NCBI GenBank assembly: GCA_964651115.1
Contig: CAZYXJ010000001.1
Span: 213,077 to 277,076, forward strand
Length of the DNA: 64,000 nucleotides
Origin: an uncultured Candidatus Saccharibacteria bacterium
Lineage (GTDB): Bacteria > Patescibacteriota > Minisyncoccia > Phycocordibacterales > JACOZG01
Direction: 5' to 3'
Position 1 is the first letter of the stretch. Each line of letters starts with the position of its first letter. Both the position numbers and the translations under genes were made by a program. Shown piece after piece: positions 16,131-61,434 of this stretch. The notes beneath the pieces are model-generated. The model ran no database searches, had not been told where the DNA came from, and saw nothing but the letters and a program-made list of their open reading frames with translations.

Positions 16131-16439
16131 TCACTTTTTCTCCCAGCGATCTTTATCTCGACTATTCAACTTAGCCATCACCCGATCAAAGCCGCGATCC
16201 ATATCGAGGCCCAGAGAATTAGATAAACAGGTTAAAGTGAAGATAACATCAGCAACCTCTTCCTCAATATCCTGGACATCCTCAGTATCTTTTTTCTTTT
16301 TAGGACCAAAACGGTGATTTATTTCCCGAGCCAACTCCCCAATCTCTTCCGTCAAACGGGCCATTATTTCTAGGGGTTTAAAATAACCGATCTTATATTG
16401 TTGCACCCACCCCTCCACCTCTTGTTGGATTCTTTTCAT
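16131..16439 (-). CDS. MazG-type nucleotide pyrophosphohydrolase
   Basis: 102 aa, ...LTEEIGELAREI...EEVADVIFTLTCLSNSLGLDMD... (EExxE/D motifs of the MazG domain). Confidence 0.6.
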   Translation of the reverse strand: MKRIQQEVEGWVQQYKIGYFKPLEIMARLTEEIGELAREINHRFGPKKKKDTEDVQDIEEEVADVIFTLTCLSNSLGLDMDRGFDRVMAKLNSRDKDRWEKK

Positions 16440-16446
16440 ACGGCCA

Positions 16447-16890
16447 TTATTCCATATATTCTATTTCCAACCCAAGCCGCAGGGCCTGATCATGCTCCCA
16501 GCGTGCACCGACCGAAGACTGCCAATCAGGGAGAAAATACAACTTATGAACCAATTTAGACTCAAATATTGGCAAGTAAAAATCGATTAACAATAAGTCA
16601 TCGTAATGCTCAAACTCGCGTCGACTCTTAATGCGTTGCATCGGTACTTCAAAAGGAACTTGATCAAAAATCTCGATCCCTCTTTGTTGCAAACTAGCGA
16701 TCGTCACTTCGAATCGCTTTAAATTTTTCTCCACCGAACCAGCGCCACCGGTCGAAATCGGACCGCACACCTGGCCAATGGGTGGGGGCATTTTCCGCAA
16801 CACTTGTTCAGCAACAATAAAAAGATCCCGATAAGTCTCCGCTCGGTCTAAGCTGTCATAATGTTCTTGATCCCAATACTTAAGTGACAT
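16447..16890 (-). CDS. DUF4406-like / nucleoside 2-deoxyribosyltransferase-like protein
   Basis: 147 aa. CGPISTGG...FEVTIASLQQRGIEIFDQVPF...LPDWQSSVGARWEHDQALRLGLEI matches the flavodoxin-like DUF4406/NDT fold pattern. Confidence 0.45.
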   Translation of the reverse strand: MSLKYWDQEHYDSLDRAETYRDLFIVAEQVLRKMPPPIGQVCGPISTGGAGSVEKNLKRFEVTIASLQQRGIEIFDQVPFEVPMQRIKSRREFEHYDDLLLIDFYLPIFESKLVHKLYFLPDWQSSVGARWEHDQALRLGLEIEYME

Positions 16891-16903
16891 AAAATTGTAA
16901 ATT

Positions 16904-17305
16904 TTACCTTATTTTCTTAACGACGGTGCCGTAAAAAATTGATGATCTGGTCCTGGAACCACCCGACTCAAAACCCACGAAAAGGCTGGGGTTTTTTATA
17001 ACCTTGTAATAATCTCCTCTGAAATAAAAAGTTTCTTTTAAATTGAATCTTTCAGCATTATAAATCTCTTCAAAAACATAAACTCCCCCTCCACGAGATA
17101 ATGGCTCACCCTCAAGCACCGCCACCTCATCACTCGATTGATACATTTTTTGAGAGTCAAAAAACTCTATATCGCCAAAAGGAATACGATTCTTTACTTC
17201 AGCTAAAAACGTTTTCTTTATATTAACGTCAAATGCCCAACCCAAAGCAAGAATACCAACCGCAATAAAAAACGAAAATTTATGCCTCAAGATAAAATTA
17301 ATCAC
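16904..17305 (-). CDS. Hypothetical protein with N-terminal TM anchor
   Basis: 133-aa ORF, lower GC than the backbone. Confidence 0.35.
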   Translation of the reverse strand: MINFILRHKFSFFIAVGILALGWAFDVNIKKTFLAEVKNRIPFGDIEFFDSQKMYQSSDEVAVLEGEPLSRGGGVYVFEEIYNAERFNLKETFYFRGDYYKVIKNPSLFVGFESGGSRTRSSIFYGTVVKKIR

Positions 17306-17697
17306 AAAAAAGATCGATAATCGGGATAATTGGCCTTAATAATGGATCTCCATGCAGCCGTTTCATTCGTGCTGCCCAAATCACCCTTGGTATAAACTAA
17401 CAGAACGTGTACAGTGGCATTGCTTTTTTTGATAGCAATAATACACCTGTTACCCGAAGCGTGGCGCGACTTACCAGGTCCAGCAATCCGAAATTCCGTT
17501 TTACAAATCTTGACGTCGCCAGCATCACAAATTATCTCCACACGACTATTAACACCGATCAGTGATTCTATACGTTTAAATTGCTCCGCAATAGCATTCC
17601 ATGTAACATCCCAAGCATTTTTATACTTCTTCTTAAATTTTGAGATGTAGTGTCGGTCGGCAAATTTTTCGACAATAACCGCATAACTAGTAGACAT
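17302..17697 (-). CDS. Putative type II toxin (RelE/ParE-superfamily, Gp49/HigB-like) paired with a Panacea-domain antitoxin
   Basis: 131 aa. Its 3' portion ...FRIAGPGKSRHASGNRCIIAIKKSNATVHVLLVYTKGD... resembles the conserved core of Gp49/RelE-fold toxins. It overlaps the upstream HTH-Panacea gene by 11 nt. Confidence 0.45.
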   Translation of the reverse strand: MSTSYAVIVEKFADRHYISKFKKKYKNAWDVTWNAIAEQFKRIESLIGVNSRVEIICDAGDVKICKTEFRIAGPGKSRHASGNRCIIAIKKSNATVHVLLVYTKGDLGSTNETAAWRSIIKANYPDYRSFL

Positions 17698-18370
17698 GGT
17701 CCGGATTTTCCTGTGTGATTAGTTCGTAAGGAATAGCCTCGTCCGGCGCACACAGCTTGTACGGAAGCTGTTCATGAGTAAAATCAACAATTTCCTTAGT
17801 TCTTTTATCTTTCCATTTTGTGGAAATCTTTTTCATAAGTTCAACCTCTTCGCCCTGCAGAAGATCAAGCTTTTGACGGAGGGCTCCTGCACCAATTGAC
17901 ACGAGCATTGCGTCACCCTTGCGGTCTATTGTGATCTTCCCCTCATCTTCAAGTTCGTCAATCGCACGGAAATACGGATCGGGTACCGGACCGTAGGCAC
18001 GACGTAAGTACTGCATTCCGCTCATGCTTTCTAATTTTTCGTAATACCAAGCAAAATCGGCAAGGTAGAGAAGCTTTGCGAGTTTTGTTTTTGGCACCCG
18101 CCCATCAGTTGATGCAGGAAATTTAAGATACGCAATAATCATCTGCTTGTATTTTTCATACTGTGGAGCTGTTACTTTTGAAAGTTCTTCGATTGAAATA
18201 CCATACAATTCGCATAGTTTTTCTGCTTCCCGTAACGTCATTTCGCGTATTCCACGCTCTACGGCCATATAGGATTGGCGCGAGAGTCCAAGTTTTTCGG
18301 CTACTACTAACTGCGAAATACCCCTCTTTGTTCTAAGGGCTTTTATAAATGATGCGTATTTGGTGCTCAT
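17687..18370 (-). CDS. Antitoxin: XRE-family HTH fused to a Panacea (DUF4065/SocA-like) domain
   Basis: N-terminal HTH_XRE (LRTKRGISQLVVAEKLGLSRQSYMAVERG). C-terminal ...KLAKLLYLADFAWYYEKLESMSGMQYLRRAYGPVPDPYFRAIDELEDEGKI... matches the Panacea domain. Start at the internal Met (cat 18368-18370). Confidence 0.7.
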   Translation of the reverse strand: MSTKYASFIKALRTKRGISQLVVAEKLGLSRQSYMAVERGIREMTLREAEKLCELYGISIEELSKVTAPQYEKYKQMIIAYLKFPASTDGRVPKTKLAKLLYLADFAWYYEKLESMSGMQYLRRAYGPVPDPYFRAIDELEDEGKITIDRKGDAMLVSIGAGALRQKLDLLQGEEVELMKKISTKWKDKRTKEIVDFTHEQLPYKLCAPDEAIPYELITQENPDHVY

Positions 18371-18730
18371 GTCTAAAGTGTACATAACCTGTGTATAAAA
18401 TACAAACACAGGGTGTTGATATTCTATACACGCTCGTGGTAAAATTGTTGCACTGGACTAGTCGAACCAGCAGAAAAATAAACTTAATACCTTAGTACTA
18501 TGGCAAAAACCTCAAAAAAGGCCGGTAGGGCTGCATCAAAAGTGTTGCGGAGCAAAAGTGCAGGAAAAAATCCAAAGATAGCTGCCGCTTCTGCATTGCG
18601 ACAGCGTCAAGACCGCCAATAGAGGCTAACTTGAGCAAAAGTTACTGGCTTATAGAGAGCTCGCGGAGAAAGAGAATTGATTGGGTTACAGCCATTCACT
18701 AACAGCCCTAGAAAAGTATGCCTCGCTCAC

Positions 18731-18758
18731 ACAAAACCGCACAATGTGCGGTTTTGTG
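18731..18758. terminator. Perfect palindrome (acaaaaccgcaca-a-tgtgcggttttgt) immediately 3' of the R-M gene; candidate bidirectional terminator
   Basis: 13-bp arms read from the sequence. The T-tract is modest. Confidence 0.4.
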
Positions 18759-21700
18759 TTATAAGGCCACCTCATCAATTTCTCTCATAATTTTGTCTGT
18801 TTCCACCAAAGCAACAATAATTTTTTGATAGTGTTCAATATCGCCATTTGAAAGCATGCGACCCTTGCGGTCTTTCAACCACTTCTGCGCGGGTTGGTAG
18901 CCGCCGATGTAGAACGACCATGCGATCTCGGGGACGTTGCCAAAATACTGCGTTGCGTTGATGTATACACTGTCGCCCTTGCGAGTGATTTTCTCTACCT
19001 TGTTCGTGCCGACCTCGGGGTAGGTAGTGATGGGGGTGCGTACCGCCGCTGATTCGAGCAGGTGAAGTTCCCGGAGTTGTTTACCGAGCGCCGCGAGTGC
19101 GGCGAACTGCGCCTTATCTTTCGGATATGGGACGCGGGGGAAATCTATTCTAAGAAACTCCTTGTACTTCTCACGGTAGTTTGGTGAGTGCAGAACGGCG
19201 TAGACATAATCAAAGATATCCTCGGGCGTTGGTTCTTTTCCGACCAAAGAGGCAATCTGCTTCACAATGTCGCGGTTGAGGTTCGGTACACGAGTGCCGT
19301 CCCCCGCGTGTAAATAAAGTGGGACGTTCATGGCGTTTGTGGCTGTCGTTCCAGACAAGAATATTGCTTCGGAAATGGTATTTGTAACAAAGACGTGGTT
19401 GTAGTCAGCATCGCGGACGCTTTTTGTGACCAAAAGTCCGAGATTAGATCCTTGTAGGTAATGCTTCATTATTTTGTCTACCGGACGCCAAACTAGCGAT
19501 GAGTGGTAAAAGATCAGACGATCATCAAAAGGACGATATGCGATCTCTTTTACAAAGTTCGATAATTCATTTTCTTTCCGCAAAGCATCTCGAGCTTTCA
19601 ACGCATCCCAACCTTTTTTATCGCTGATACCAACCTCGGCGCACAATGCCCTTTGTGTGTTTGTTGTTGAGTTACGGAAACGTTCCGCGTTGGAAGCAAG
19701 ATTCTGGGTGTCACTGCCAATAACAAAGGCGTCTCTGGCTGTAACCACCCCATTCCCGTTTTCAATAAAGAGGTCTTTGATAGAAATGTTTTTTATGTAT
19801 TGAGCTTTTGTTTTCTCATCTCGCACTGTCCATTCGTAGTTTTGCGACTTGGGAGCGAGCTCGTGCCAGTGCATGGAGCCAAGTTCCATTTCATTGAGAC
19901 ACTCGAACTTCGTTCGCTTCGTTCCGAAACAGTCGGCGCGATAGACGTTGGCGAGAGAGCCCGAGCGTTTTCCTTTGCGGCGTACGCCAATAAGAATCGA
20001 GACGCCCTGTTTGATAGCGAACACGTTTTCATCTTTGCCACCATCGGGGGCTTTTTCTTTCTTGTTGGAATTTCCGTGGAGGTCGAGAACGTAAATCTCG
20101 CTGAACGTCTCCATGAGGTGATAGCGCATACCCCGAAACGTTGGGTTGTCGATGTACCCGTGTGCAGTAATCATTCCGACAATACCCTCACCGGTTTGTT
20201 CGATAAGACTCTCGGCGAAGCGAATGAACTTCACGTAGTCATCGTTTATCCATTTGCTGTTGCGTTCTTTGAGCTTTTGCGAAGTACCCGGCTCAACCTT
20301 GTAGACATCGTGCCCTGTGTACTCCTTGTTACTTGACTCTCCTGCGTAGGGGGGATTTCCTATCACAATCATTATCGGTGTGTCGTTCTTGATGCGAGCA
20401 GCGGCACGACTCTCCTCACTAATACTCTGTGCGAGACCGAGCATGCCAAAGAGCGAATCGTCAGGGCGCTCCGCTTTCTCAAGAGAGTTCGTGAGATACA
20501 CGCCGATACGGTCTTTGAAATCTTTTGCACCGGACTCGCGGAGGGTGGCGGCAAGTTTGAGGTGAGCGATGGTATAGGGCGCCATCATAAGCTCGAAGCC
20601 GTGGAGACGAGGGAGGAGGTCTTCATTCACGTAGCCACTGAATCGTCCTTCCTGTCCGGCGAATGTGCGACGGATGAGACGTATCGTCTCGTTAAGGAAG
20701 GTGCCAGTGCCAGTTGCTGGATCGAGCACCTGCACTTTGTGAATGGTGTCCTTCACTTTCTTGCCCTGCACCATTCGCGTGATATCTATCTTCTTCGTGT
20801 CGGCGAGACCTTGGGGTAGGTCGAAGTCGCGTTTGAGAATGGCATCAACCGAGCGCACGATGAAGTGCACGACGGCGGGTGGTGTGTAATACGCACCAAG
20901 CTTCTTTCGCTCTACTGGGTCGTATGCTTTGAGAAAGTCCTCGTAAAAGTGGATGACAGGGTCGGGCGCCGCCTGTTCTGCGCCCCATAGGTCTTGCTTG
21001 TAAATCTGTTGCATGAGTGCGCGGACATTAGCGTTGCCGAACACTTTGCAGAGGTCGTCGACGATTGGCTTCAATCGGTCGTCAAAGTCAGCACCGGCGA
21101 TGTGGTCGAAGAAGCGACGCAGGAGAGGGTTTGAGTGCGGGATAAGCTCACGCGCTTCTGCTCGTGTGAAGTCTTTGGGGGATTCATCGTGATACCTCGC
21201 GACGAAAAGACCGTACACGAGCGTCTGCGCATACATGTCGGTGAAGTCGTCGAGCGAAAGATCGTGGATGAGTTGCGATTTGAACGCCTCGTAGATGTCG
21301 AGGAGAGGTTTATTCTTGGGACTATCCGTTTTAAGAAAGCGCAGCAGATTGGCGCGGAGGCGCTTGCCGTTCTCTCCCATGATTTCGGCGAGGCGGTTCG
21401 CACGGCGCACCGGCTCCGCCGCATCTTCGAGGAAGGCTCGAATTGTGGTTTCTAAAAGGGCATATGAGTTTCCGTCCGGTGAAAGTGTCTCAAGGTCACT
21501 TATTACGATGGGGTCGCAATACGCTCCGCCATGCTTGTAGAAGCGAAACTCGAGATAATTCGTAAGGATGAGGTTAGCATAGCCAAAGTAACGTTTGAGT
21601 TGTTCCCCCTTGACGATATCGTCGAGGTTCTCCCCGAGACGCTTGGTCTCGACATAGCCGACTGGAAATCCGCCCTTGATGAGGGCAAAGTCGGGGGCAC

Positions 21701-21863
21701 CAAACTCGATCTTTCCCGGCTCATTCACCGCGTCCACGTCGGGAAGCATTGCCTCAAGTAGCACCTTAAGTGCGGGGCGGTGCTGGTGTTCTAGATCTTT
21801 GGTACCCACGCTGGAAGTCGCACTACGAGTTCGTGCAATTGCAGAAAGGTATGTTTCTAGCAT
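18759..21863 (-). CDS. Type IIL/IIG restriction-modification enzyme, MmeI-like single polypeptide (PD-ExK nuclease + N6-adenine methyltransferase + specificity domain)
   Basis: About 1034 aa from the MLETYLSAI start (cat 21861-21863; the upstream 90-aa extension overlaps the neighbouring gene). N-terminal D-x13-ETK nuclease motif (APDFALIKGGFPVGYVETKRLG). Central SAM-MTase with the NPPY motif (VIGNPPYAG) and large C-terminal target-recognition region, as in MmeI-family enzymes. Confidence 0.75.
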   Translation of the reverse strand: MLETYLSAIARTRSATSSVGTKDLEHQHRPALKVLLEAMLPDVDAVNEPGKIEFGAPDFALIKGGFPVGYVETKRLGENLDDIVKGEQLKRYFGYANLILTNYLEFRFYKHGGAYCDPIVISDLETLSPDGNSYALLETTIRAFLEDAAEPVRRANRLAEIMGENGKRLRANLLRFLKTDSPKNKPLLDIYEAFKSQLIHDLSLDDFTDMYAQTLVYGLFVARYHDESPKDFTRAEARELIPHSNPLLRRFFDHIAGADFDDRLKPIVDDLCKVFGNANVRALMQQIYKQDLWGAEQAAPDPVIHFYEDFLKAYDPVERKKLGAYYTPPAVVHFIVRSVDAILKRDFDLPQGLADTKKIDITRMVQGKKVKDTIHKVQVLDPATGTGTFLNETIRLIRRTFAGQEGRFSGYVNEDLLPRLHGFELMMAPYTIAHLKLAATLRESGAKDFKDRIGVYLTNSLEKAERPDDSLFGMLGLAQSISEESRAAARIKNDTPIMIVIGNPPYAGESSNKEYTGHDVYKVEPGTSQKLKERNSKWINDDYVKFIRFAESLIEQTGEGIVGMITAHGYIDNPTFRGMRYHLMETFSEIYVLDLHGNSNKKEKAPDGGKDENVFAIKQGVSILIGVRRKGKRSGSLANVYRADCFGTKRTKFECLNEMELGSMHWHELAPKSQNYEWTVRDEKTKAQYIKNISIKDLFIENGNGVVTARDAFVIGSDTQNLASNAERFRNSTTNTQRALCAEVGISDKKGWDALKARDALRKENELSNFVKEIAYRPFDDRLIFYHSSLVWRPVDKIMKHYLQGSNLGLLVTKSVRDADYNHVFVTNTISEAIFLSGTTATNAMNVPLYLHAGDGTRVPNLNRDIVKQIASLVGKEPTPEDIFDYVYAVLHSPNYREKYKEFLRIDFPRVPYPKDKAQFAALAALGKQLRELHLLESAAVRTPITTYPEVGTNKVEKITRKGDSVYINATQYFGNVPEIAWSFYIGGYQPAQKWLKDRKGRMLSNGDIEHYQKIIVALVETDKIMREIDEVAL

Positions 21864-22008
21864 GTTTTGAATTCCTGTATAAATAGCCTTCGGCCATATT
21901 ACCACCAAGCACAGGAGTTCACCACTCCAACGGCCCGGCTCTCTAAGTAACAGAAAAGACCCTTGCTTAAAAGCAAGGGTCTTGATTAGCGATTCGGGGG
22001 GGTAAGAA

Positions 22009-22584
22009 CTACGTTTTACGCCGGCGGCGAGCGCACAGTGGCGCCGCCAACCCAAGGAGCACGAGGCTCGTCGGCTCCGGCAAGCCGGAGCCCCGAAGAA
22101 AGATGAGGTTGGTACGGAACTCGTCCGCACCAAACTCTAACCAATTCCCCACGGCGCTGGGGTCTGAACTCCAACTGAGCCGCTCCAACTGCAAGGCATA
22201 ATAGCCCGACAGTCGAGGCTCTAGCATCGCACCAACATGGAAGCGCCTCTTCTCCCCCTCCGCTATTAAGTAAAAGTCTTGCCCATCACTGGGGGAAGAA
22301 CTTGTACTCAAAAACGCCATCATCGGCGATCCTACCCCCGGGGTGGCGAAGTTGAAGAACGAATACTGGAGCAGCGGTGATGGCCTGGCGGACAGCCGTG
22401 GAACATAGACATCCCCGGAGATGGCGATGATATCGAACCACATCCGGAAGTAACCGATGCTCCCCTCCTCGAAGTCTTTCTGCCAGACTTCCGCCTGACT
22501 GGAAACCAACGTCGCCACCGGCGACGCTACCGCAACGGAACACGTCACCAACGCCGCCGCCACAAAGGAAAACAGACGGTTCAT
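22009..22584 (-). CDS. Secreted PEP-CTERM sorting-domain protein
   Basis: 191 aa with N-terminal signal peptide. The C-terminus ...SGLPEPTSLVLLGLAAPLCARRRRKT* is PEP + TM + Arg-cluster, the PEP-CTERM/exosortase signal. Confidence 0.65.
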   Translation of the reverse strand: MNRLFSFVAAALVTCSVAVASPVATLVSSQAEVWQKDFEEGSIGYFRMWFDIIAISGDVYVPRLSARPSPLLQYSFFNFATPGVGSPMMAFLSTSSSPSDGQDFYLIAEGEKRRFHVGAMLEPRLSGYYALQLERLSWSSDPSAVGNWLEFGADEFRTNLIFLRGSGLPEPTSLVLLGLAAPLCARRRRKT

Positions 22585-22691: not shown

Positions 22692-23507
22692 CTATCGTTG
22701 AGCGTGTTTTAGGATCCATTTGGTGTGTTCGTTTTTGGACTTCGACCAAGCGGCAATGAGCTTTTTAGCTTCTTTTGGGTTTACCTTGACCCAGTCTCGG
22801 ACATGATTGGCGACTGATTTTTTGACAAATTTTATCTCGTCTTCTTTGAGTAATTCGAGGATTTCAAAAATTGGCTTTGGGTTCTCGTTCCACACATCAA
22901 GCTTCGGTGCCCAGGGTAGTTTGGGGCGAAGTCCTTCGGTTGCAAGTCGGCGGAGGTGAAAATTTTTGCTTTTTGCCCATTTGTTACATATCGCAAGAGT
23001 TTTCTCAGGATACTTACGAGCATACGGACGAATAGCATATTCTCCCGTGTTTCTTTTGGTAATTTCTTCGATAGCTTTTATTGACAGCGCAAAGTGATCA
23101 AGCCCGTATTTCTCGACAAATTTTCCAACCGGCATGAGCCAATAAAAATTAGTAAACATACCAGTTTCTTCTTTGTTTTCTGGCCCGAGTATTTGCAAAA
23201 GGATATCAAGTGCTTCCGGATATTTTTCTGGTAGATACTGCTTGAGTAGATCCGCAATGATTCCGATCCGTTGCGTGTAGCTCTTACCAACAACTGCTCG
23301 TTTAGTATCGCGAACAAAACCTTTCGTATCAAAATTTTTATATACGGCCGATATTTTCTCCGCAAGCATTACTGCCAAATCTTCTCCGAACACCTCCGTG
23401 ATTGAGATTCTGTCAGTCATTGCGGTGGATTCTGAAATTAGTTCGAACGGAATTCGCTCCTCGCCGCGCACACTAACAATTTTAAGTTTTTCTTTAGCGG
23501 AATACAA
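22692..23507 (-). CDS. DNA alkylation repair protein (AlkD/AlkC-like HEAT-repeat glycosylase family)
   Basis: 271 aa all-alpha protein. ...FVKKSVANHVRDWVKVNPKEAKKLI... resembles the DNA_alkylation family C-terminal signature. Low GC. Confidence 0.5.
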   Translation of the reverse strand: MYSAKEKLKIVSVRGEERIPFELISESTAMTDRISITEVFGEDLAVMLAEKISAVYKNFDTKGFVRDTKRAVVGKSYTQRIGIIADLLKQYLPEKYPEALDILLQILGPENKEETGMFTNFYWLMPVGKFVEKYGLDHFALSIKAIEEITKRNTGEYAIRPYARKYPEKTLAICNKWAKSKNFHLRRLATEGLRPKLPWAPKLDVWNENPKPIFEILELLKEDEIKFVKKSVANHVRDWVKVNPKEAKKLIAAWSKSKNEHTKWILKHAQR

Positions 23508-24647: not shown

Positions 24648-24737
<90 letters not shown>

Positions 24738-33829: not shown

Positions 33830-36793
33830 TTATTTCATCATTCGGCTGAGGCGGCAGCCCAAACAATCCTTTTCACCACAGCCCCGCTTAACAAATTCGC
33901 CCGACACGATCTCCCCCGTCACCCGATCAAGCAGGTCACGGACCGTCGCCTCATCGGCAGGCGGAATTTCGAAAGCTTCGCGCTTAAATTTTCCACTCTC
34001 ACTCGGCTCCACAAAATCCACCATCGCGCTAGCCACCTTAAAGCGTCCGCGCTCGCACTCTTCGATCAAAATTTTATAGAACACCAACTGACGATAAATA
34101 TCTCCCGTCGAATTTTTGGTCGTACCTAAAATTTCGTTACGACTCTTGGGCGACATTGTTTTATAGTCCACGATCTGTACCGTCTCGGGACTCAGAAATT
34201 CGATCTTATCGATCTTGCCCACCAATTTGAGATCGGGCGTGAGATGACAACCCGGAACTTTATACTCGTTAAGAATCGATCGCGGCCAGCCGCCGACTGG
34301 CGAAGTAGACCAAGTTTGAAACCAGCCAGCCAGCGCTTCTCTACCCCGCACCTGCGCCGCCGCCAAATCTCTTTCCGAAAAAGCTTCATGCTGAACCAGA
34401 CGCTCAAAACTGGCCAACAACGATTCGACGGTCACCTCACCGCCCTCACGATAACGATTAAAAAAAACTTCGAGCGTCCCGTGGATCGCCGTACCATACA
34501 TGGTATGACGATTGCGGATCTGGATCACCCGCAACAAATTAGTAAATAAATAATCAAGCGGGCAGCGCAAATAATTATTTAACCCCGTCGCCGAGAGACC
34601 CTGCTCGCGAAAGCGGCCCGCCAAATAAGCCGGATCAAAAATTGACGCCCCCTGATATTGCCGCGGTGTAAAAATCAAATTGCACTCGGGACGCACCTGG
34701 CTCTCCCACTCCGCCATCGGCTCAAACACCAAGCGCTCCGGATCCAACTCCTCAATAAACTGGCTCGGCAAAAGTGGCCGCCCATCCGATCCCTCAGATG
34801 AGTAACTGAGCGCGACAGCCAAACGCGCGCGAGTGAGCGCCACGTAAAAAAGGCGGCGCTCATCCTCCACCGGATCGGCGGCCGTTGGCACGCCCGCGCG
34901 CGTCGGGATCTTAAAGTATTGCGGCGAACGACGACTCCCCCAACCATTATCCGAAACCCCGATCACGTAGACGTAATCAAACTCCAAACCCTTGGACTTG
35001 TGCGCCGTCATCAACTCCACACCGCTTTGGCCTGCCTCCTGACGAGTCTTGATCCCGCGATGATGCGTCGCCAAACGATTAAGAAATTGAATAAAGTCCG
35101 CCAACCTAAAATTATGATTACTCCGCGAGAGCGCCACCCCCTCGTCGTAGAGCGCGTGTAATTTGCTCAACACCTCCTGGGCTTCGGGCAAACCCAAAAC
35201 ATGCTCCAAATAACCCGACTCCCGCACCACCACCGCGTACAAATCCAAAAAACTCTGATTGGCGGCCAAGCGGGCCCAGCGCTCCAACTTCTGCGACCAA
35301 GATTTTAATTTTTTCTTACGGCTGGTCCGCAAGCGCTGCCAGAGCGAACCGCCGGTCGCCTCCTCCCGCAGGGCATAAATTTCTAGAATATCCACTGCCA
35401 CAAAATCGAGATGCAAAAACTCCAGCAACAAGCGATCATCACCAAAACCATTAATCGCTCGCAAGAGAACAATTAATTTTTGCACCTCAATATCTTCTAA
35501 AATATTAGAGTCGGAACGGACCACGAAAGGGACTCCCGCCCGCTCAAAATAATCAATGATCGGTAGCGAGTCGCCATTAGTGCGATAAAGCACGGCCAAC
35601 TGCTCCGGCGGCACACCGGCGGCCAGCTTTGACTTAACCTCTTCTACTAGGTACAACAATTCGTGAGCGGGTTTAGTAAAGGATCTAACTTTAATCGGCA
35701 GGGACGCTCGCTCGGAGCGCGCCACCAGGGGCGACAAACTCTCAGCCGGCAAAGCCTGACTCTTGCTGATCACACTCTGGGCCGCATCCAAAATAAGCTG
35801 GGTCGAACGATAATTATCCGTTAACGTAATTAGCGTCGCTTGAGGAAAAAGTTTTTTAAAATAATTAAAATTATCCAGCGAGGCGCCTTGAAATTGGAAG
35901 ATGGCCTGCTTCTCATCGCCGACAATAAACAAGTTGGGCTGATCGTGGAAACTAGACAGCAGTTCCAACAAACGATTTTGTGACTGATTGGCATCCTGGT
36001 GCTCGTCAGCCAGCACATATTGATATTCTTCTTGAATCTGCAGACGGAAGTCGCTGTCTTCGCCAAGAGCGCGATTAACCTCTAGCAACATATCGCCAAA
36101 ATCGTAGAGACGACGGGTGGCCAACTTGGTTTCGTAAGCCGTGTAAAGTCGGACTAGCTCCTCAGCTTTGGTAATATTGGTCCGCAAAACTTGATACTTA
36201 CCCTTAATCTGGCCCGCGTAGGCCCCTTTCTCGTGACGCAAATCCGGCACGCTCTCGAGCGCCTTCTGCTCGAGCTCAACAATCGCGCGCAGGTCGTCGG
36301 GGCTGACATTTTCGCGCTTGAGTCGATCAATTTCTTGCTGGACCGGAAAGAGATAGTGGAATTGGTCGCCATAGGGTCGGAGGAGCGAGAGATCGCTCTC
36401 CAAAATTGCCTCCTCCAAAATCTGAATCTGATCAATCGGTAAAGCATTGATCGCTCCCACAATACGTGGGAATTTTTCGGGATAACGTCTAATCAACTCG
36501 TTAGCAAAACTATGGAAGGTGTGAATGGGGATCCGGTAGGCGCGACTGCCCACCAACGACACCAGTCGCCGGCGCATCGCGTGGGCGCCGGCATTAGTAA
36601 AAGTTAGCGCCAAGATCGCGTCGGCGGGCGTGTCGGTCTGACGCAAAATGTTGGCGATCCGCAGAGTTAACACTTGAGTCTTGCCCGTGCCAGGACCAGC
36701 CACCACCATCACCGGACCCTCAATCAGATCAACGGCCCGACGTTGAGCGGGATTAAGACGTTGATAGTGTTGCTCAAATTGATCCACCGACAT
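33830..36793 (-). CDS. UvrD/PcrA/AddA-type ATP-dependent DNA helicase fused to a C-terminal PD-(D/E)XK RecB-family nuclease with Cys cluster
   Basis: 987 aa. N-terminal Walker A (AGPGTGKT) and UvrD helicase motifs. C-terminal nuclease region with four Cys (RCPLDY ... CGEKDCLGC), a Cas4/AddB-like arrangement. Confidence 0.75.
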   Translation of the reverse strand: MSVDQFEQHYQRLNPAQRRAVDLIEGPVMVVAGPGTGKTQVLTLRIANILRQTDTPADAILALTFTNAGAHAMRRRLVSLVGSRAYRIPIHTFHSFANELIRRYPEKFPRIVGAINALPIDQIQILEEAILESDLSLLRPYGDQFHYLFPVQQEIDRLKRENVSPDDLRAIVELEQKALESVPDLRHEKGAYAGQIKGKYQVLRTNITKAEELVRLYTAYETKLATRRLYDFGDMLLEVNRALGEDSDFRLQIQEEYQYVLADEHQDANQSQNRLLELLSSFHDQPNLFIVGDEKQAIFQFQGASLDNFNYFKKLFPQATLITLTDNYRSTQLILDAAQSVISKSQALPAESLSPLVARSERASLPIKVRSFTKPAHELLYLVEEVKSKLAAGVPPEQLAVLYRTNGDSLPIIDYFERAGVPFVVRSDSNILEDIEVQKLIVLLRAINGFGDDRLLLEFLHLDFVAVDILEIYALREEATGGSLWQRLRTSRKKKLKSWSQKLERWARLAANQSFLDLYAVVVRESGYLEHVLGLPEAQEVLSKLHALYDEGVALSRSNHNFRLADFIQFLNRLATHHRGIKTRQEAGQSGVELMTAHKSKGLEFDYVYVIGVSDNGWGSRRSPQYFKIPTRAGVPTAADPVEDERRLFYVALTRARLAVALSYSSEGSDGRPLLPSQFIEELDPERLVFEPMAEWESQVRPECNLIFTPRQYQGASIFDPAYLAGRFREQGLSATGLNNYLRCPLDYLFTNLLRVIQIRNRHTMYGTAIHGTLEVFFNRYREGGEVTVESLLASFERLVQHEAFSERDLAAAQVRGREALAGWFQTWSTSPVGGWPRSILNEYKVPGCHLTPDLKLVGKIDKIEFLSPETVQIVDYKTMSPKSRNEILGTTKNSTGDIYRQLVFYKILIEECERGRFKVASAMVDFVEPSESGKFKREAFEIPPADEATVRDLLDRVTGEIVSGEFVKRGCGEKDCLGCRLSRMMK

Positions 36794-43566: not shown

Positions 43567-44301
43567 CTAAACTTTGCCTAAGAAAACTTTTTCCAAAACA
43601 CCACTGGCAATGAGCGTAGTCGGCTGCCCCTCGGCGACCAGTAAGCCCTTATCAAGCACGTAGGCTCGGTCAGTAATTTCTAAAAGTGATTTAAGATTGT
43701 GCTCAACTACCACCACGGCGATCTGGCGTTTCTGATTAATCTCTTTAATCGTGGCAAAAATTTCCTTCACGATCTTGGGAGCAAGTCCTAGTGATGGCTC
43801 ATCGAGAAGCAGAACCTTAGGGTCGGTGACCAAGCCGCGAGCGATCGCGAGCATTTGCTGCTGGCCCCCAGAGAGCGTCCCCGATTTGGCTTTGAGTTTG
43901 GTTTTAAGCGCCGGTAAAAGGTCGAGAACTTCCGCAATCTTCTCTCTAACTAGTTTTTTGTTCTTAATCACGATCCCGCCTAATTCCAAATTTTCCTGCA
44001 CCGTCAGATGACGGAAAACCCGGCGGCCCTGCGGTACAAAAGTGATCCCCCGCAACACCATCTCGTGCGAGACTGGGGTAACCGACTCTTCGTGCCAGTA
44101 GACTTTGCCCCGCTCGATAGGCGCCAGGCCAAAGAGGGCCTTTAGAACCGTCGACTTCCCCGCCCCGTTGGGCCCCATCAAGGCCACCACCTCACCCTCA
44201 TCAATTGCTAGCGAAACACCGTCAAGCGCCTTCACGCCACCATAGTGGACATGGAGATCCTCTAGTTTTAGCAATTTTTCTGTAGCAACAGCCGTGGGCA
44301 T
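43567..44301 (-). CDS. livF: Branched-chain amino acid ABC transporter ATP-binding protein (LivF-like)
   Basis: Walker A GPNGAGKST, ABC signature LSGGQQQ, 244 aa. Confidence 0.8.
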   Translation of the reverse strand: MPTAVATEKLLKLEDLHVHYGGVKALDGVSLAIDEGEVVALMGPNGAGKSTVLKALFGLAPIERGKVYWHEESVTPVSHEMVLRGITFVPQGRRVFRHLTVQENLELGGIVIKNKKLVREKIAEVLDLLPALKTKLKAKSGTLSGGQQQMLAIARGLVTDPKVLLLDEPSLGLAPKIVKEIFATIKEINQKRQIAVVVVEHNLKSLLEITDRAYVLDKGLLVAEGQPTTLIASGVLEKVFLGKV

Positions 44302-44307
44302 GGTTTA

Positions 44308-45327
44308 TTAATTACCAGTTAAGATCGTTGGCTGGCCACCTTTAATTTGCTTCATGATAATCGGGCGGGTGTAGATGCCGCTAGCGTTAAACTTGGCGCC
44401 TGAGAGAAGATTACTTTTGACACAGCTGTAATCACCCTTACACTCCGTAACAGCTTGGACCAAAACCTCGGTTGCTTGTTTGGAGAGTCCAAAAACCGCC
44501 CCCTCGCTACCCTCCAAATCGCCAGGGAACGAATAAATCACATCGGGTACTAACTCACGCACGGCCGGTAATTCCGCTACGTAAGTTGTATAGACCGGCA
44601 CCATCACTTTAAGTTGGCGGAGCTTGGGTACGCCGCTGCCAAAGAAGAAGGAGATATCAGGTGAGTAGATAGCGTCAACGCCAGCTTTGCTAATCTTTAA
44701 TACCTCCGGCGAGAGATCAACAGTCTCGTCGGTTAAAACAACGTCTTGAGCGATTGTGCCCTTAAAGTTTTTACGGAAGCTGTCGGCGTGAGTCTGAGAG
44801 AAGGCGTTTTTAAAGCTCACCAGCGCCACCTTGCGATGACCACGAGCAAACATTTGCTCAGCCACAAACTTCGACTCCTCTTGGAGAGAATACTGGATAT
44901 TGAAGAAGTTGTTGCCGCTAGCCGCATACAAATCTGAGGAAGCGGCGGCTGGTACAATGGACAGAACCTCCTTACCCTTTAAAAGCGGCACAACCGCCTC
45001 TTGAGGCGAGCCGCAGGCGGGACCAATGATGTATTTAGCTTTATCAAACTCCGCTAATTTTTGATAAGCAGTTACCGCCACCTTTGGGTCACATTGATCA
45101 TCCTCAAAAATCAAACTAACAGCCGTCGTACTCCCAACACCAGCCTGCACACCTCGGCGGACCTCCTCACCATAATCAGCCAGTGGACCAGTAAGCGGCG
45201 CGATTACTCCTATTTTGACAGGTTCGCTTGTGCCCACAGGGCCATCTTTTTTAACCGCCACGCCAATACCCCACACCACCAGAATAATGACAATGATCGC
45301 GATTATAATTTTTGCTGTGTTGGACAT
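44308..45327 (-). CDS. PBP1/LivK-type substrate-binding protein, membrane-anchored (paralog 1)
   Basis: N-terminal TM anchor MSNTAKIIIAIIVIILVVWGIGVA, Peripla_BP_6-like domain. Confidence 0.7.
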   Translation of the reverse strand: MSNTAKIIIAIIVIILVVWGIGVAVKKDGPVGTSEPVKIGVIAPLTGPLADYGEEVRRGVQAGVGSTTAVSLIFEDDQCDPKVAVTAYQKLAEFDKAKYIIGPACGSPQEAVVPLLKGKEVLSIVPAAASSDLYAASGNNFFNIQYSLQEESKFVAEQMFARGHRKVALVSFKNAFSQTHADSFRKNFKGTIAQDVVLTDETVDLSPEVLKISKAGVDAIYSPDISFFFGSGVPKLRQLKVMVPVYTTYVAELPAVRELVPDVIYSFPGDLEGSEGAVFGLSKQATEVLVQAVTECKGDYSCVKSNLLSGAKFNASGIYTRPIIMKQIKGGQPTILTGN

Positions 45328-45337
45328 GGTGTTTTTG

Positions 45338-46081
45338 CTATTCTCCTAAATATGCCTCAATTACTTCTGGCTTTTTTAAAACTTCTTCTGGTAAACCTTG
45401 GGCCAAGAGCTGGCCGGCGTCCATCACGATTAAGTGATCACACAACTCGCGGATTAAATCCATGTTGTGCTCGACTAAAATAATAGTTTTACCTGCCGCC
45501 CGGAGCTCTTTAATTACGCTCACCACTGTTTTAATCATCTCAGGAAAGAGTCCGGCAAATGGTTCATCAAGAAAAATGATGGAGGCCGCGTTGTCACTAG
45601 CCGAGACCATCGCGAGCACGCGCGCGATCTCCAAGAGCTTGCGCTGACCATAAGAGAGATTAGCGGCTAACTCCCCGCGCTTCTCCCACAGACCAACTTT
45701 TTTAAGGGCCGCCTCAGCCTGAGCCACATGAAAATCTTTGTGCTTCTCAAACAGTGAGGCAAAAGTGTTCCGCTCTGTTAGGACCACCAAGATGTTATCG
45801 AGCACCGGCATTTGCTCAAAGAGTCGTACGTCTTGGAAGGTGCGGGTTACGCCGTACTCGGCTGACTCATAAGCGCGCAAGCGCGAGAGCTCAACGCCAG
45901 AAATTACGATCGCCCCCGCCTCAAACGGGAACATGCCAGTGAGAGTATTGATAAGAGTCGATTTGCCCGAGCCGTTGGGACCGATCACGCCAGTGATCTT
46001 GCCGGCAGCAAATTCAACCGAGAGCCGGTCTACCGCCTTAACCCCGTCAAATTGTTTGGAGAGACCGTGGGTTTTAAGCAT
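45338..46081 (-). CDS. livG: Branched-chain amino acid ABC transporter ATP-binding protein (LivG-like)
   Basis: Walker A GPNGSGKST, LivG-typical RTFQ motif, LSYGQRKLLEIAR signature. Confidence 0.8.
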   Translation of the reverse strand: MLKTHGLSKQFDGVKAVDRLSVEFAAGKITGVIGPNGSGKSTLINTLTGMFPFEAGAIVISGVELSRLRAYESAEYGVTRTFQDVRLFEQMPVLDNILVVLTERNTFASLFEKHKDFHVAQAEAALKKVGLWEKRGELAANLSYGQRKLLEIARVLAMVSASDNAASIIFLDEPFAGLFPEMIKTVVSVIKELRAAGKTIILVEHNMDLIRELCDHLIVMDAGQLLAQGLPEEVLKKPEVIEAYLGE

Positions 46082-46120
46082 CGTAGCCTAATTAAATAGG
46101 ATGTTGCCCCGACCGTCAAA

Positions 46121-46846
46121 TTACCGTTTTGGTCTAATTGAATAGCAAACCCAGGTGTAACCCAGGGCATTATTGTAGCGCCTGCCGACAACCTCACAAC
46201 CACAATCGCTAACTAAGTTCTCCAGCACCACAAAATCAGCATTGGGATCTTTAGTATTTGCGCTTTGCAGGTTAGAGTGAGTTAAGAGTATGTAGCCGCC
46301 TGGATTAATATGGTCTCTGGCCTCCTCAAATAGTCTTCGGTGCAGGACCATCCCCGGATCATAGAGCGCTGCGGTGATGCTTGTTTTTTCTGTGGGGACA
46401 GCGTTCGTAATGGGCAGATTAGCAATTATCCGATCATATTTTTTATTCCCCATTGCTGAGAAGAGATCACTTACGAATACCGATATTGTGTCTTCTAGAC
46501 CATTTAGTTGAACATTATGTTTGCTGCAAGCTACCGCCTCCGGAATAAGATCCACAGCATCAACGTGTTTGGCCCCTTTAATAACTGCCGCAATTGATTC
46601 GACACCAGTACCGCAACCGATGTCAGCAACATCCAAACCGCTCAAATCACCAAGAGCTTCATATAATGTGCGAGAGGACACGGAGTGATCAGCGGCCGGC
46701 GGAAAAATGCCAGGGAAGACATCGATTAAGATAATTTTGCCATCGATTTCGACATTCACCCGATAAGTTCCTTGGGCTTTCTTGCGCTCCAGTTCTTTGA
46801 CCATTCCCTGGGTCTGCGGGGAATCAGCTTGTGGTTTGATTTCCAT
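46121..46846 (-). CDS. SAM-dependent methyltransferase, MTS-domain type (RsmC/PrmA-like) with a degenerate motif IV
   Basis: DIGCGTG motif I. IANLPI is found where NPPF/NPPY is expected. Start overlaps the stop of the upstream SBP gene by 1 nt. Confidence 0.6.
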   Translation of the reverse strand: MEIKPQADSPQTQGMVKELERKKAQGTYRVNVEIDGKIILIDVFPGIFPPAADHSVSSRTLYEALGDLSGLDVADIGCGTGVESIAAVIKGAKHVDAVDLIPEAVACSKHNVQLNGLEDTISVFVSDLFSAMGNKKYDRIIANLPITNAVPTEKTSITAALYDPGMVLHRRLFEEARDHINPGGYILLTHSNLQSANTKDPNADFVVLENLVSDCGCEVVGRRYNNALGYTWVCYSIRPKR

Positions 46847-48006
46847 TACTCAGCCTTCACGAATTTACCCTCACGAACAGTCTTCATTTCAAAGGCTTCG
46901 ACTGGAGTCTCAACAAAACCCTTGTCATCAAACTCAATGAGAGGAATAGATACACTGCCCTCAAACCTCACCTTCTCTAAACCTGATCGAACATTCTCTC
47001 GATTAATTTCTTGGCCAGACTCAACAAGGCCCTTCATCACCTCCGCCAGAACCAAAACTGCGTTGTAAGAGGTAACAGCCGATGGCGACAATGGCTTTAG
47101 ATTAAATCTAGCTTCGTACGCCTTCTCAAACTGATCATAACCATGAGACTGGCTTGGCGTTGCAAAATATAGACGGTTTTGCATCAGCTCTGGGCATTCG
47201 CTCAAAGCTTTTGGCGTTCCGGCAGACTCGGTGGAGAGAAGAGGTAAAGGCGCTCCAAGTTCCTTAGACTGAGCCAAAAAGACACATTCCAACTCGGCAA
47301 AAGCGCCAAAGAAGGCGTCTGGGGATTTGGCCTTAGCCTTGCTAATCAAAGTTCGATAATCAGTAACGGCATAGTCCGTACCCATTTCTTTAGCCACCAC
47401 AGTAATACCAAATTCTGGCGCATTTTTTTCAACCAAGTTAGCAGTAAAAAGCCAGAAGCTAAAGTTTGCTGGCTGGACAATGGCAATCTTTTTCCAGCCC
47501 TTATTTTGAGCAAACTTGAGTAATTCTCTAATCCCCACTTCGTTCTTGGGCCAAGTAACAAAGAAATAAGGTGAGTTAACTTTAGACTCAATGTAGGTTG
47601 AGACATTGGGGCTCACCACTGGAGTTTTGTCAGCTGAAGAGATGGCAGCCACTACCTCGCCGTTACCGTCCCACTGAGGACCAACAATAGCGACTACATT
47701 ATCAACTGCAATTAACTTCTTGGCCGCTGCCGCTCCGCGTTTAAGATCAAGACCAGGAGCGTCTTCTGAAACCATTTCTATTTTCTTGCCACCCACCCCA
47801 CCTTGAGCATTTACTTCTTCCACCGCTAGCAGAGCCCCGTTCTTTTCCTCTGCACCAATTTCAGCGCCTAAGCCAGATTGCCCAGACATCTGCCCGATCT
47901 TGATAACCTCCGCCGAGACTGAATTAGGATTTTTGCTCTTGCTCGCCCAAACTCCCAGCCCCACCACCACCAGAATTATGACGATCCAAATTATTGTTTT
48001 TTTCAT
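46846..48006 (-). CDS. PBP1/LivK-type substrate-binding protein, membrane-anchored (paralog 2)
   Basis: MKKTIIWIVIILVVVGLGVWASK anchor, Leu/Ile/Val-binding-protein fold signatures. Confidence 0.7.
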   Translation of the reverse strand: MKKTIIWIVIILVVVGLGVWASKSKNPNSVSAEVIKIGQMSGQSGLGAEIGAEEKNGALLAVEEVNAQGGVGGKKIEMVSEDAPGLDLKRGAAAAKKLIAVDNVVAIVGPQWDGNGEVVAAISSADKTPVVSPNVSTYIESKVNSPYFFVTWPKNEVGIRELLKFAQNKGWKKIAIVQPANFSFWLFTANLVEKNAPEFGITVVAKEMGTDYAVTDYRTLISKAKAKSPDAFFGAFAELECVFLAQSKELGAPLPLLSTESAGTPKALSECPELMQNRLYFATPSQSHGYDQFEKAYEARFNLKPLSPSAVTSYNAVLVLAEVMKGLVESGQEINRENVRSGLEKVRFEGSVSIPLIEFDDKGFVETPVEAFEMKTVREGKFVKAE

Positions 48007-48009
48007 AGT

Positions 48010-48732
48010 TTATTTAATTCCCACAACAACAGCTTCCATCATTTTGCGATAAACCGTTTCCACACCCTTAAAACCAATCGAAGTCATAAACGTTTTTGCC
48101 TCCCCTTCAAAAAACACCAGATCTTCTTGTTCGTCACGTTCCATGTGTGCAAGCCACTCTTTTTTGTAATCCGACCGACCAATGGTGTCGTAAATGTCAT
48201 ATTTGGCAATTTGTTCTCTATAAATCTCTTGTCGCTTTTCTGGATCATCATGGGCATACTTATCACCATTAACAAAAATGCCACCCGGCTTTAAGACCCT
48301 GAAGATTTCTGAAATTATCTGTCGACGAAAGTTTTGTTCAAAATTATGGATCACGAAACCAGAAGCTACGGCATCAAATGATGAGTCTGGTATATTCTTC
48401 AAATATTCTCCGACCTCACTTTCAATTACCGTCACCCGATTGGAAGCTTGCCAACGATTAAGATTATCCTGGATTTGATCAATCATTTTTTTCTCATTAT
48501 CAACAGCCACAACGCGTACACGAGAATCTGAGTCAAGTAGAAACTTGGTAGTAATCCCGGTCCCACATCCGACCTCCATAGTTACAATACTCCCCACCTG
48601 AGAATCCTTGAAGTGCTCGCGGATAGCTTGCCCAACCGCCTGCTGAAGTTCATCATAGTGCGGGTAAGCCAACTTCAAAAGCTCATACTCTTCGCCCAGG
48701 ATATTATTAAATCTTTGATCGTTAGAAGTCAT
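48010..48732 (-). CDS. Class I SAM-dependent methyltransferase (Methyltransf_25/12-like)
   Basis: VGCGTGITTKFLL motif I; 240 aa. Confidence 0.65.
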   Translation of the reverse strand: MTSNDQRFNNILGEEYELLKLAYPHYDELQQAVGQAIREHFKDSQVGSIVTMEVGCGTGITTKFLLDSDSRVRVVAVDNEKKMIDQIQDNLNRWQASNRVTVIESEVGEYLKNIPDSSFDAVASGFVIHNFEQNFRRQIISEIFRVLKPGGIFVNGDKYAHDDPEKRQEIYREQIAKYDIYDTIGRSDYKKEWLAHMERDEQEDLVFFEGEAKTFMTSIGFKGVETVYRKMMEAVVVGIK

Positions 48733-48737
48733 TTTAT

Positions 48738-49847: not shown

Positions 49848-49850
49848 ATT

Positions 49851-50930: not shown

Positions 50931-50935
50931 ATTGG

Positions 50936-52057: not shown

Positions 52058-52123
52058 GACTCTAGTCTAGCAAGCTCGGGTGAACTGTAAAGCAAAAGTT
52101 GACTATACTGGTTTTATTGCCCG

Positions 52124-53239: not shown

Positions 53240-53378
53240 AATAGCATTATACAGATGAGCTATTTTATTGTATATAGATGAGGCTCGGTTGGACCGTTTC
53301 TCAAAAATATGCTTATTTATAGCGCTGGAACGGTTTTTATAATTTGACTAAAAATTAGTCACAAGCTATACTCAGCTG

Positions 53379-54203: not shown

Positions 54204-54212
54204 TCTGGGGAT

Positions 54213-55091: not shown

Positions 55092-55093
55092 GG

Positions 55094-55972: not shown

Positions 55973-56028
55973 CCAAACTATAACAGCAACCTGAGCTGAC
56001 TACAAATCAGGTCCGGAATAAAACAAGC

Positions 56029-57135: not shown

Positions 57136-57137
57136 AT

Positions 57138-57893: not shown

Positions 57894-57932
57894 CCAAACT
57901 ATACCTTATTCCTTGTATTGTTTCCAACGGTA

Positions 57933-59054: not shown

Positions 59055-59133
59055 CGTTTTAAACTATCATGAAGTTTTTCCAAACGCCAACCACCCGCCT
59101 CTCGGCGGGTGGTTGGGAATAAACCTTAATTTT

Positions 59134-60252: not shown

Positions 60253-60421
60253 ATATGATTATAAATATATCTTATATCCACTCAAGCATAAACTAGATTT
60301 TTCTCTTGTCATTAATAATTATCTAATTGCCACAGGAAATATGGCCTTAACTAAAGGTTTTTTAACTTATTAATTTTTTTGTTCGTTAAAAGTGACAAAT
60401 GTTTAAATACGTGTTAGAGTT

Positions 60422-61222: not shown

Positions 61223-61434
61223 CCGCCCATGCGGAGACTTCAGAAACAAAGTTCTGGGAATCACCAGAGATGCCAAGATTCGGCCAGACAAACTCGACGC
61301 TAGAGGTTATATGAAATACTTTCTTGAGAAAGGAGCAACTCGAGGGAAACAAAAACTGATACAGTAGTTTATAAGTCGATTATTACTTATCAATAAAAGA
61401 GTCACAGTCGCCGGTAATGCTCTGGAGAGTTTTC

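Follow-up and report, generated by a model that had tools for sequence, protein, structure and literature searches.

What kind of restriction–modification (RM) enzyme is encoded by the large minus-strand gene at 18759-21863 of the 64-kb window (the whole stretch of DNA analyzed here), and does that enzyme act alone? The original prediction assigned the gene product to the MmeI-like Type IIL enzymes. The class named there holds, in that the protein belongs to the stand-alone enzymes that carry nuclease, methyltransferase, and specificity functions on a single chain (Type IIG/IIL), whereas the family does not, the MmeI-specific Pfam domains being absent. We consider it very likely that the gene encodes an intact, self-sufficient RM enzyme resembling DrdV, of Type IIG and probably Type IIL. 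This reading is based on the order of the domains, conservation of the catalytic motifs, homology of all three functional parts to DrdV, and the lack of a motor domain or partner gene. The features on which the argument draws are as follows, all on the minus strand:

18759-21863 (stop codon included): predicted single-chain Type IIG/IIL RM gene, 1034 aa, complete (ORF and translation; PADLOC; homologues align end to end)
21489-21863: N-terminal PD-(D/E)xK endonuclease domain, residues 1-125
21690-21692, 21648-21650, and 21642-21644: catalytic candidates D58, E72, and K74
20964-21488: helical connector, residues 126-300 (all-helical in the AF2 model; no Walker A motif)
19974-20963: gamma-class N6-adenine methyltransferase domain, residues 301-630 (Pfam N6_Mtase, Eco57I, MmeI_Mtase)
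20697-20723: motif I, DPATGTGTF, residues 381-389
20346-20357: motif IV, NPPY, residues 503-506
19254-19973: variable target-recognition segment, residues 631-870 (drop in column identity; within or beside Type_ISP_C)
18762-19253: C-terminal conserved part of Type_ISP_C, residues 871-1034 (Pfam, E=3e-83)
21956-21983: terminator of the upstream PEP-CTERM gene (terminator scan; 12-pair stem and T tract)
18729-18759: perfect 15-nt inverted repeat I6, directly 3' of the stop codon (100% complementary)

The single polypeptide of ~1030 aa that had been proposed is borne out by a reading frame that is unbroken from start to stop, and the identical 1034-aa protein is present in NCBI (P0001). The maximal ORF reaches a TTG at 22133; this start was rejected, as the extension runs into the PEP-CTERM gene (22009-22584) and the terminator at 21956-21983. 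The N termini of homologues lie at, or a few residues from, the ATG at 21863, and the 1034-aa reading is therefore the right one. The same terminator marks the 5' boundary of the unit, with ~90 nt between it and the ATG, a stretch in which a sigma-70 promoter scan yielded no convincing promoter. At the other end, the outermost base of the inverted repeat is the last base of the stop codon, and this repeat is likely the transcription terminator of the RM gene; it was not flagged by the terminator scan. Terminator-like hairpins flank the gene on both sides.

The nuclease motif anticipated as D-x13-ETK is present and reads G-A-P-D58-F-(x12)-E72-T-K74, that is, D-x13-ExK, with a QxxxY motif (Q88/Y92) C-terminal to it. 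No substitution occurs at D58, E72, K74, Q88, or Y92, nor in motif I or NPPY, in 39 aligned homologues (52-82% identity to the query). The NPPY methyltransferase motif, likewise anticipated, is the sole (D/N/S)PP(Y/F/W/H) motif among ORFs of >=150 aa in the whole 64-kb window, and neither a separate methyltransferase nor an S subunit was found beside the RM gene, in agreement with the original prediction. Pfam Type_ISP_C (PF18135) spans residues 697-1027 and covers profile positions 1-341 of 342; this region contains C-terminal motifs common to DrdV, LlaGI, and LlaBIII, such as YVYAVLHSPxYRxKY...FPRVP. The protein also matches the PADLOC model REase_MTase_IIG (PDLC03610) with E=3.6e-274.

DrdV is the best match to the query by sequence, by whole-protein fold, and by the isolated nuclease domain. 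The two proteins are nearly equal in length (1029 aa in DrdV and 1034 aa here), share the order of nuclease, helical connector, gamma N6-adenine methyltransferase, and recognition domain, and are both without an ATPase. The methyltransferase and recognition domain match 7LO5 with a profile E-value of 2.8e-79 (profile positions 230-994). Identity to DrdV is only ~22%, however, and the nuclease domains cannot be aligned by plain sequence search, the phmmer alignment beginning within the connector at query residue 220 (DrdV residue 188). The best matches to the isolated nuclease domain are DrdV and BpuSI; over the whole protein, BpuSI (Type IIG; PDB 3S1S) is a weak match (Foldseek E=1e-11, 10% identity). 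Sequence and modeled fold together group the protein with DrdV and with the methyltransferase-specificity lineage of the Type ISP enzymes. The gene is one member of a very large family that is already known; its more distant relatives are spread over many phyla, and the public names given to the family disagree with one another ("type ISP enzyme," "predicted helicase," "N-6 DNA methylase," and "type I methylase subunit").

If the enzyme works as described for DrdV, whose methyltransferase and recognition domains are similar to those of Type ISP enzymes (bioRxiv 10.1101/2021.01.06.425610), its recognition domain would bind a short asymmetric sequence, and its methyltransferase would flip out one adenine and methylate it on one strand only with S-adenosylmethionine, thereby protecting the host. 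The cut would fall on one side of the site, at a short and constant distance from it, and would occur only once several site-bound molecules have assembled, lending their nuclease domains to each other's DNA. Because several assembled site-bound molecules would be needed, invading DNA with many unmodified sites would be cut, and isolated unmodified sites left after host replication would be methylated. The oligomerization contacts, the cut distance, and the one-strand methylation are extrapolations from DrdV, since identity is ~22% and the nucleases align by structure rather than by plain sequence search.

Might the protein be a methyltransferase only, with the nuclease domain an inactive remnant and the whole an orphan m6A methylase with a role in, for instance, epigenetic regulation? 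Inactivation is frequent among single-chain RM genes, and in RM genes it often comes about silently, through point mutations that are invisible to sequence inspection. Many relatives are publicly annotated as "N-6 DNA methylase," and in one relative of 79% identity (P0011) the gene is split near the C terminus. In the query, however, the frame is intact end to end, the D58/E72/K74 and QxxxY residues show the invariance described above, and the nuclease fold, which is confidently modeled, can be superposed on that of the active nuclease of DrdV. We therefore regard loss of nuclease function as improbable, although it is the strongest of the alternatives to a DrdV-like RM enzyme.

Membership in the MmeI family proper would imply the MmeI recognition architecture, a 20/18 cut, and a specificity readable from the MmeI contact-residue code. 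The resemblance is real as far as architecture goes: MmeI (Type IIL; PDB 5HR4) is also one chain with an N-terminal PD-ExK nuclease, a gamma m6A methyltransferase, and a C-terminal recognition domain in identical order, and its family likewise has no second methyltransferase and no fixed neighbors (PMC2731913). There is, moreover, a weak match to Pfam MmeI_Mtase (30.4 bits against a cut-off of 27), and 5HR4 is detectable as a fold relative (Foldseek E=2e-11). The family was defined by similarity to MmeI over the entire length at BLAST E<1e-20, and its members cleave ~20/18 nt from the site and methylate one strand (Morgan et al. 2009, PMC2731913). Between MmeI and the query, in contrast, no full-length sequence similarity is detectable, and the recognition domain comes from a different family, the query C terminus being Type_ISP_C. 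A search for MmeI_N, MmeI_hel, MmeI_TRD, and MmeI_C yields no match, either in the protein (E<=0.1) or in any of 39 family members, the query and 38 homologues (E<=0.01). A PDB sequence search does not recover 5HR4 either, whether run with the protein itself (E<=0.01) or with a 39-sequence profile (E<=1), and in the structural comparison 5HR4 has 11% identity and ranks below DrdV, LlaBIII, LlaGI, BrxX/PglX, and CamA. The nuclease spacing differs as well, with D70-x9-E80-x-K82 in MmeI (PMC2731913) and D58-x13-E72-x-K74 here; no alignment of these residues to the MmeI nuclease was obtained, there being no sequence hit and that domain being reported as not visible in the crystal structure of MmeI (bioRxiv 10.1101/2021.01.06.425610). 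Judged by sequence, MmeI membership is essentially refuted, and we hold it to be very unlikely.

This distinction bears on two expectations. The specificity had been thought predictable and engineerable through the MmeI contact-residue code; because the protein lies outside the MmeI family, that code should not transfer to what is a DrdV/Type ISP lineage. By analogy with DrdV, a cut at 10/8 is more likely than MmeI's 20/18. The label "MmeI-like" would thus have misled both the prediction of specificity and the expected cut distance. The family label is hereby corrected, although the meaning of this correction beyond annotation is small.

The kinship with Type ISP enzymes raises the converse possibility that the protein is an ATP-driven translocating enzyme like LlaGI and LlaBIII, or a truncated remnant of one. 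The Type_ISP_C domain is present, only DrdV is a better PDB match than LlaBIII and LlaGI, the methyltransferase and C-terminal specificity domains of LlaBIII and LlaGI are homologous to those of the query (profile E ~1e-64 to 1e-67), and database names include "type ISP restriction/modification enzyme" and "predicted helicase." In Type ISP enzymes, however, the nuclease and the methyltransferase are separated by a RecA-like ATPase/translocase and a coupler, and cleavage follows the collision of translocating enzymes; the query has no such motor domain. The alignments begin past the ATPase regions, at residue ~800 of LlaBIII and residue ~636-667 of LlaGI; the solved LlaGI and LlaBIII chains have 1406-1578 residues, so that the query is ~370-540 shorter. 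No Walker A motif occurs anywhere in the 1034-aa protein, no helicase gene was found as a conserved neighbor in 80 homologous loci, and the nuclease domain is matched best by DrdV and BpuSI. A truncation is further opposed by the uniform length of the family: of 120 homologues listed out of at least 8000 matches, nearly all have ~1010-1070 aa, which points to a stable architecture. That the protein is a Type ISP enzyme or a remnant of one is, in our estimate, very unlikely.

The chance that the protein serves a BREX system as its PglX/BrxX methyltransferase, an identity that had been discounted from the outset, is close to nil: its fold is distantly similar to that of BrxX/PglX (Foldseek E=2e-14) and there are very weak PglX model matches, but the scores with the NCBIfam models are 10.5 bits for BREX_1_MTaseX (cut-off 500) and 12.7 bits for BREX_6_MTaseX (cut-off 900), PADLOC PglX gives E=4.9e-5 against the value above for the Type IIG model, the N terminus carries the conserved nuclease motif, and no neighbor is conserved in the 80 loci. 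The absence of brx genes, also part of the original prediction, is upheld in that the 64-kb window holds no brx-sized genes and the flanks are unrelated to brxA, brxB, brxC, pglZ, and brxL; BrxC, PglZ, and BrxL can be dismissed because the only ORF >600 aa besides the RM gene is a UvrD/PD-(D/E)XK helicase-nuclease.

The recognition segment of the protein is hypervariable. Column identity falls to 0.21-0.49 in residues 631-870, compared with 0.6-0.83 across the methyltransferase. Over residues 701-800, identity is only 25-33% to relatives whose overall identity is 73-82% and which are 93-99% identical over residues 101-600. This pattern suggests that the recognition module was recently swapped, or diverged very rapidly, within a near-identical scaffold. 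Because the segment has diverged or been swapped, the enzyme probably recognizes a sequence different from that of its closest relatives. The segment is also unrelated in detail to that of DrdV, and the target should thus differ from DrdV's CATGNAC. Prediction of the recognition sequence from relatives was abandoned, as not even the closest homologues have a related segment. Whether the sequence recognized is new among characterized enzymes we judge to be an even call. In practical terms, the enzyme might supply a new asymmetric recognition specificity, and it is a likely barrier to transforming the host. We know of no specificity code as yet for the DrdV/Type ISP recognition-domain family; near-identical scaffolds with differing recognition modules could yield one.

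The surroundings of the gene are consistent with an enzyme that acts alone. The flanking genes encode MazG, DUF4406, HTH-Panacea, PEP-CTERM, DNA_alkylation, LemA, TPM, GroEL, RNase J, and GAPDH, and two close relatives are located in unrelated housekeeping contexts. Across the 80 homologous loci, the commonest neighbor cluster occurs in only 5. The downstream HTH protein gives weak matches to PADLOC Control_protein (E=4.8e-8) and was considered as an RM controller (C) protein; it was rejected in this role, as its gene lies beyond a terminator, has a SocA_Panacea antitoxin domain, and is unconserved in the 80 loci. Cooperation of the RM gene with the neighboring low-GC HTH-Panacea/MazG block is speculative, and no evidence of it was found. 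A search for a mobile-element frame (direct repeats, integrase, and tRNA) returned only a tRNA-Ser 2.8 kb upstream and short repeats at chance level, and there is no evidence of a defined island boundary around the RM gene.

The placement in a low-GC island does not survive inspection of the base composition. The GC content of the gene is 0.51 (GC3 0.586), much as in window positions 1-44000 (0.52), and only the variable specificity segment is lower, at 0.464 the lowest within the gene. The low-GC DNA (0.36-0.44) is instead the adjacent five-gene block at 16131-18409 and a single gene at 22692-23507. The RM gene is distinct from its surroundings in GC skew, which is positive at 19-22 kb and negative almost everywhere else.

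The restriction-modification (RM) gene encodes a single chain in which a nuclease, a connector, a gamma N6A methyltransferase and a Type ISP/DrdV-type recognition domain follow one another, with catalytic motifs intact and both a motor domain and a partner gene absent. The original prediction of a stand-alone, single-chain Type IIG/IIL enzyme, as opposed to a BREX protein, holds for the class, but its assignment to the MmeI family does not. Rather, the RM protein is of the DrdV kind, and in its methyltransferase and recognition domains it has common ancestry with Type ISP enzymes. The gene and the terminator that precedes it are:

18759-21863, minus strand: RM gene, a single ORF with a 1034-aa product
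21956-21983, minus strand: PEP-CTERM terminator, 12-bp stem

The longest ORF obtained mechanically begins at a TTG at 22133, a start rejected because the added stretch would cut into the PEP-CTERM gene (22009-22584) at its 3' end and take in that gene's terminator. Homologues start at ATG 21863 of the RM gene or a few residues off, and these starts, together with the upstream overlap, indicate a 1034-aa product, in line with the ~1030 aa originally given. A perfect 15-nt inverted repeat (18729-18759) lies directly 3' of the stop codon, so that terminator-like hairpins flank the gene on both sides.

DrdV (PDB 7LO5, 1029 aa) is the top PDB sequence match of the RM protein (E=3.8e-48; 2.8e-79 with the family profile), followed by the Type ISP enzymes LlaBIII and LlaGI. 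An AlphaFold2 model built on a 39-sequence alignment (mean pLDDT 84, pTM 0.68) was searched against the PDB with Foldseek. DrdV again came first (E=8e-46, full length, 22% identity), ahead of LlaBIII (4e-39), LlaGI (8e-38), BrxX/PglX (2e-14), CamA (~3e-12), BpuSI (1e-11) and MmeI (2e-11, 11% identity); lower ranks are mostly a long run of PD-(D/E)xK nucleases. These matches agree with the reported close resemblance of DrdV to Type ISP enzymes in the methyltransferase and recognition domains (bioRxiv 10.1101/2021.01.06.425610). Alignments to LlaBIII and LlaGI start only past the ATPase regions of those enzymes, and a Walker A motif was not found in the RM protein. Pfam places Type_ISP_C at residues 697-1027 (E=3e-83), with further matches to N6_Mtase, Eco57I and, marginally, MmeI_Mtase.

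The motifs first read from the sequence, D-x13-ETK and NPPY, were found as described. The nuclease motif is G-A-P-D58-F...Y-V-E72-T-K74 (D-x13-ExK), motif I (DPAxGTGTF) occupies residues 381-389, and NPPY occurs once, at residues 503-506. The pattern is not due to chance: across 39 aligned homologues, which share 52-82% identity with the query, D58, E72, K74, motif I and NPPY do not vary. Q88-x3-Y92, downstream of E72/K74 and likewise invariant, resembles the QxxxY motif of RecB/HsdR-type nucleases. Weak Pfam HSDR_N matches in 19 of the 39 family members fit this reading. The AlphaFold2 model places D58 just ahead of the second strand, E72 close to where the third strand ends and K74 just past it, as has been described for these nucleases (PMC2731913).

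The MmeI family is defined by similarity to MmeI along the whole length and by catalytic residues that align with D70-x9-E80-x-K82 (PMC2731913); the RM protein has D58-x13-E72-x-K74. MmeI was not among its PDB sequence matches even at E<=1, and no MmeI domain other than MmeI_Mtase was matched by Pfam. On the published definition and the MmeI-specific domains, membership in that family is rejected, and the MmeI contact-residue code should therefore not be used on this protein. A BREX methyltransferase is still less tenable: PADLOC gives E=3.6e-274 for its Type IIG model PDLC03610 and only 4.9e-5 for PglX, the NCBIfam BREX models reach 10-13 bits where the cut-offs are 500-900, and the sole other ORF above 600 aa, 12 kb away, is a UvrD + PD-(D/E)XK helicase-nuclease, leaving no BrxC, PglZ or BrxL in the window. 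The (D/N/S)PP(Y/F/W/H) motif occurs in no other window ORF of at least 150 aa.

By analogy with DrdV, which cuts at 10/8 (bioRxiv 10.1101/2021.01.06.425610), the RM protein would bind an asymmetric site, modify one adenine on one strand and cut at a fixed short distance. Cleavage would occur only upon assembly of several site-bound molecules, with nuclease domains donated in trans. Under such a requirement, isolated sites that replication leaves unmodified would be methylated and many-site phage DNA would be cut.

The enzyme belongs to a known, DrdV-like kind, and its one mildly interesting feature is that divergence within a near-identical scaffold is sharply confined to the recognition segment. 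Conservation is high, at 0.6-0.83, in the methyltransferase and reaches its minimum of 0.21-0.49 over residues 631-870. Among the relatives aligned, the nearest five are 73-82% identical overall; the nearest four (77-82%) reach 85-99% across residues 101-600, and all five fall to 25-33% across residues 701-800. Such a drop is what a recognition module that has been swapped or evolves fast would leave behind. The recognition sequence cannot be deduced from relatives.

The family is very large, with at least 8000 proteins matching at E<=1e-10 (~1010-1070 aa long in almost every case among the 120 listed) and at least 596 loci in species-representative genomes, from Patescibacteria, Bacteroidota, Proteobacteria, Cyanobacteria, Spirochaetes and even one archaeon. 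P0001, an NCBI homologue, is identical to the RM protein. When all ORFs within 5 kb were clustered at 80 homologous loci, no conserved neighbour emerged, the commonest neighbour family occurring in only 5 of the 80. Two close relatives (76-79% identical) lie amid unrelated housekeeping genes. The family is genuinely stand-alone and horizontally mobile. Its source names ('predicted helicase', 'type I restriction-modification system DNA methylase subunit', 'N-6 DNA methylase', 'type ISP restriction/modification enzyme') do not fit the domain content found; for a DrdV-like protein several, such as 'type ISP enzyme' and 'predicted helicase', are misleading. The homologue P0011 (79% identical) is split into two overlapping ORFs, of 964 and 74 aa, each with Type_ISP_C (L081 8001-11091; L082 164-3254). 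The split points to a frameshift close to the C-terminus and to a probably inactivated copy in that metagenomic genome.

The "low-GC island" ascribed to the gene is inaccurate: its GC is 0.51 (GC3 0.586) versus 0.52 for window 1-44000, with housekeeping neighbours at 0.54-0.60. The low-GC DNA (0.36-0.44) is instead the gene 22692-23507 and a five-gene block directly 3' of the RM gene:

17687-18409, minus strand: HTH_3 + SocA_Panacea protein, PanA-type antitoxin architecture
17302-17697, minus strand: small ORF, no family match
16904-17305, minus strand: small ORF, no family match
16447-16890, minus strand: DUF4406 protein
16131-16439, minus strand: small MazG pyrophosphohydrolase

The RM gene is nonetheless odd in composition. 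Within it, GC is lowest (0.464) in the variable recognition segment, and plus-strand GC skew is +0.055 to +0.093 at 19001-22000 versus about -0.1 to -0.24 in almost all the remaining window, same-strand neighbours included. The positive skew is consistent with foreign origin despite native-looking GC content.

None of the genes next to the RM gene is related to restriction. In the block 16131-18409, where each of the first three ORFs runs into the next, the gene content suggests a toxin-antitoxin or defence-type cassette gained by horizontal transfer; PADLOC assigned it to no system. Upstream lie the PEP-CTERM gene, the DNA_alkylation-like gene and tRNA-Ser, and farther out LemA, TPM, GroEL, an SBP_bac_5 solute-binding protein, RNase J, an MFS transporter, GAPDH and ribulose-phosphate epimerase. 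The 191-aa secreted product of 22009-22584 (minus strand), a gene followed by a strong terminator, carries a PEP-CTERM sorting signal, which implies an exosortase system in the host. The isolated gene 22692-23507 (minus strand, GC 0.42) has the PEP-CTERM gene on one side and an unknown gene of high GC on the other; its own product ends in a DNA_alkylation repair-like domain (Pfam E=1.1e-7). The variable DNA at ~16.1-24.6 kb could have its integration hotspot in the tRNA-Ser (GGA; 24648-24737, minus strand), which lies 2.8 kb upstream of the RM gene; no integrase and no tRNA-derived direct repeat turned up. The helicase-nuclease (33830-36793, minus strand, 987 aa) has a UvrD-family helicase and a C-terminal PD-(D/E)XK nuclease in an AddA/PcrA-like architecture; its strong PADLOC GajB match (E=1.4e-84) reflects generic UvrD similarity. 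The 20-kb stretch at 44000-64000, of lower GC (~0.45) with dense 240-390-aa ORFs mostly on the minus strand, may be an accessory gene cluster, for surface polysaccharide or otherwise.
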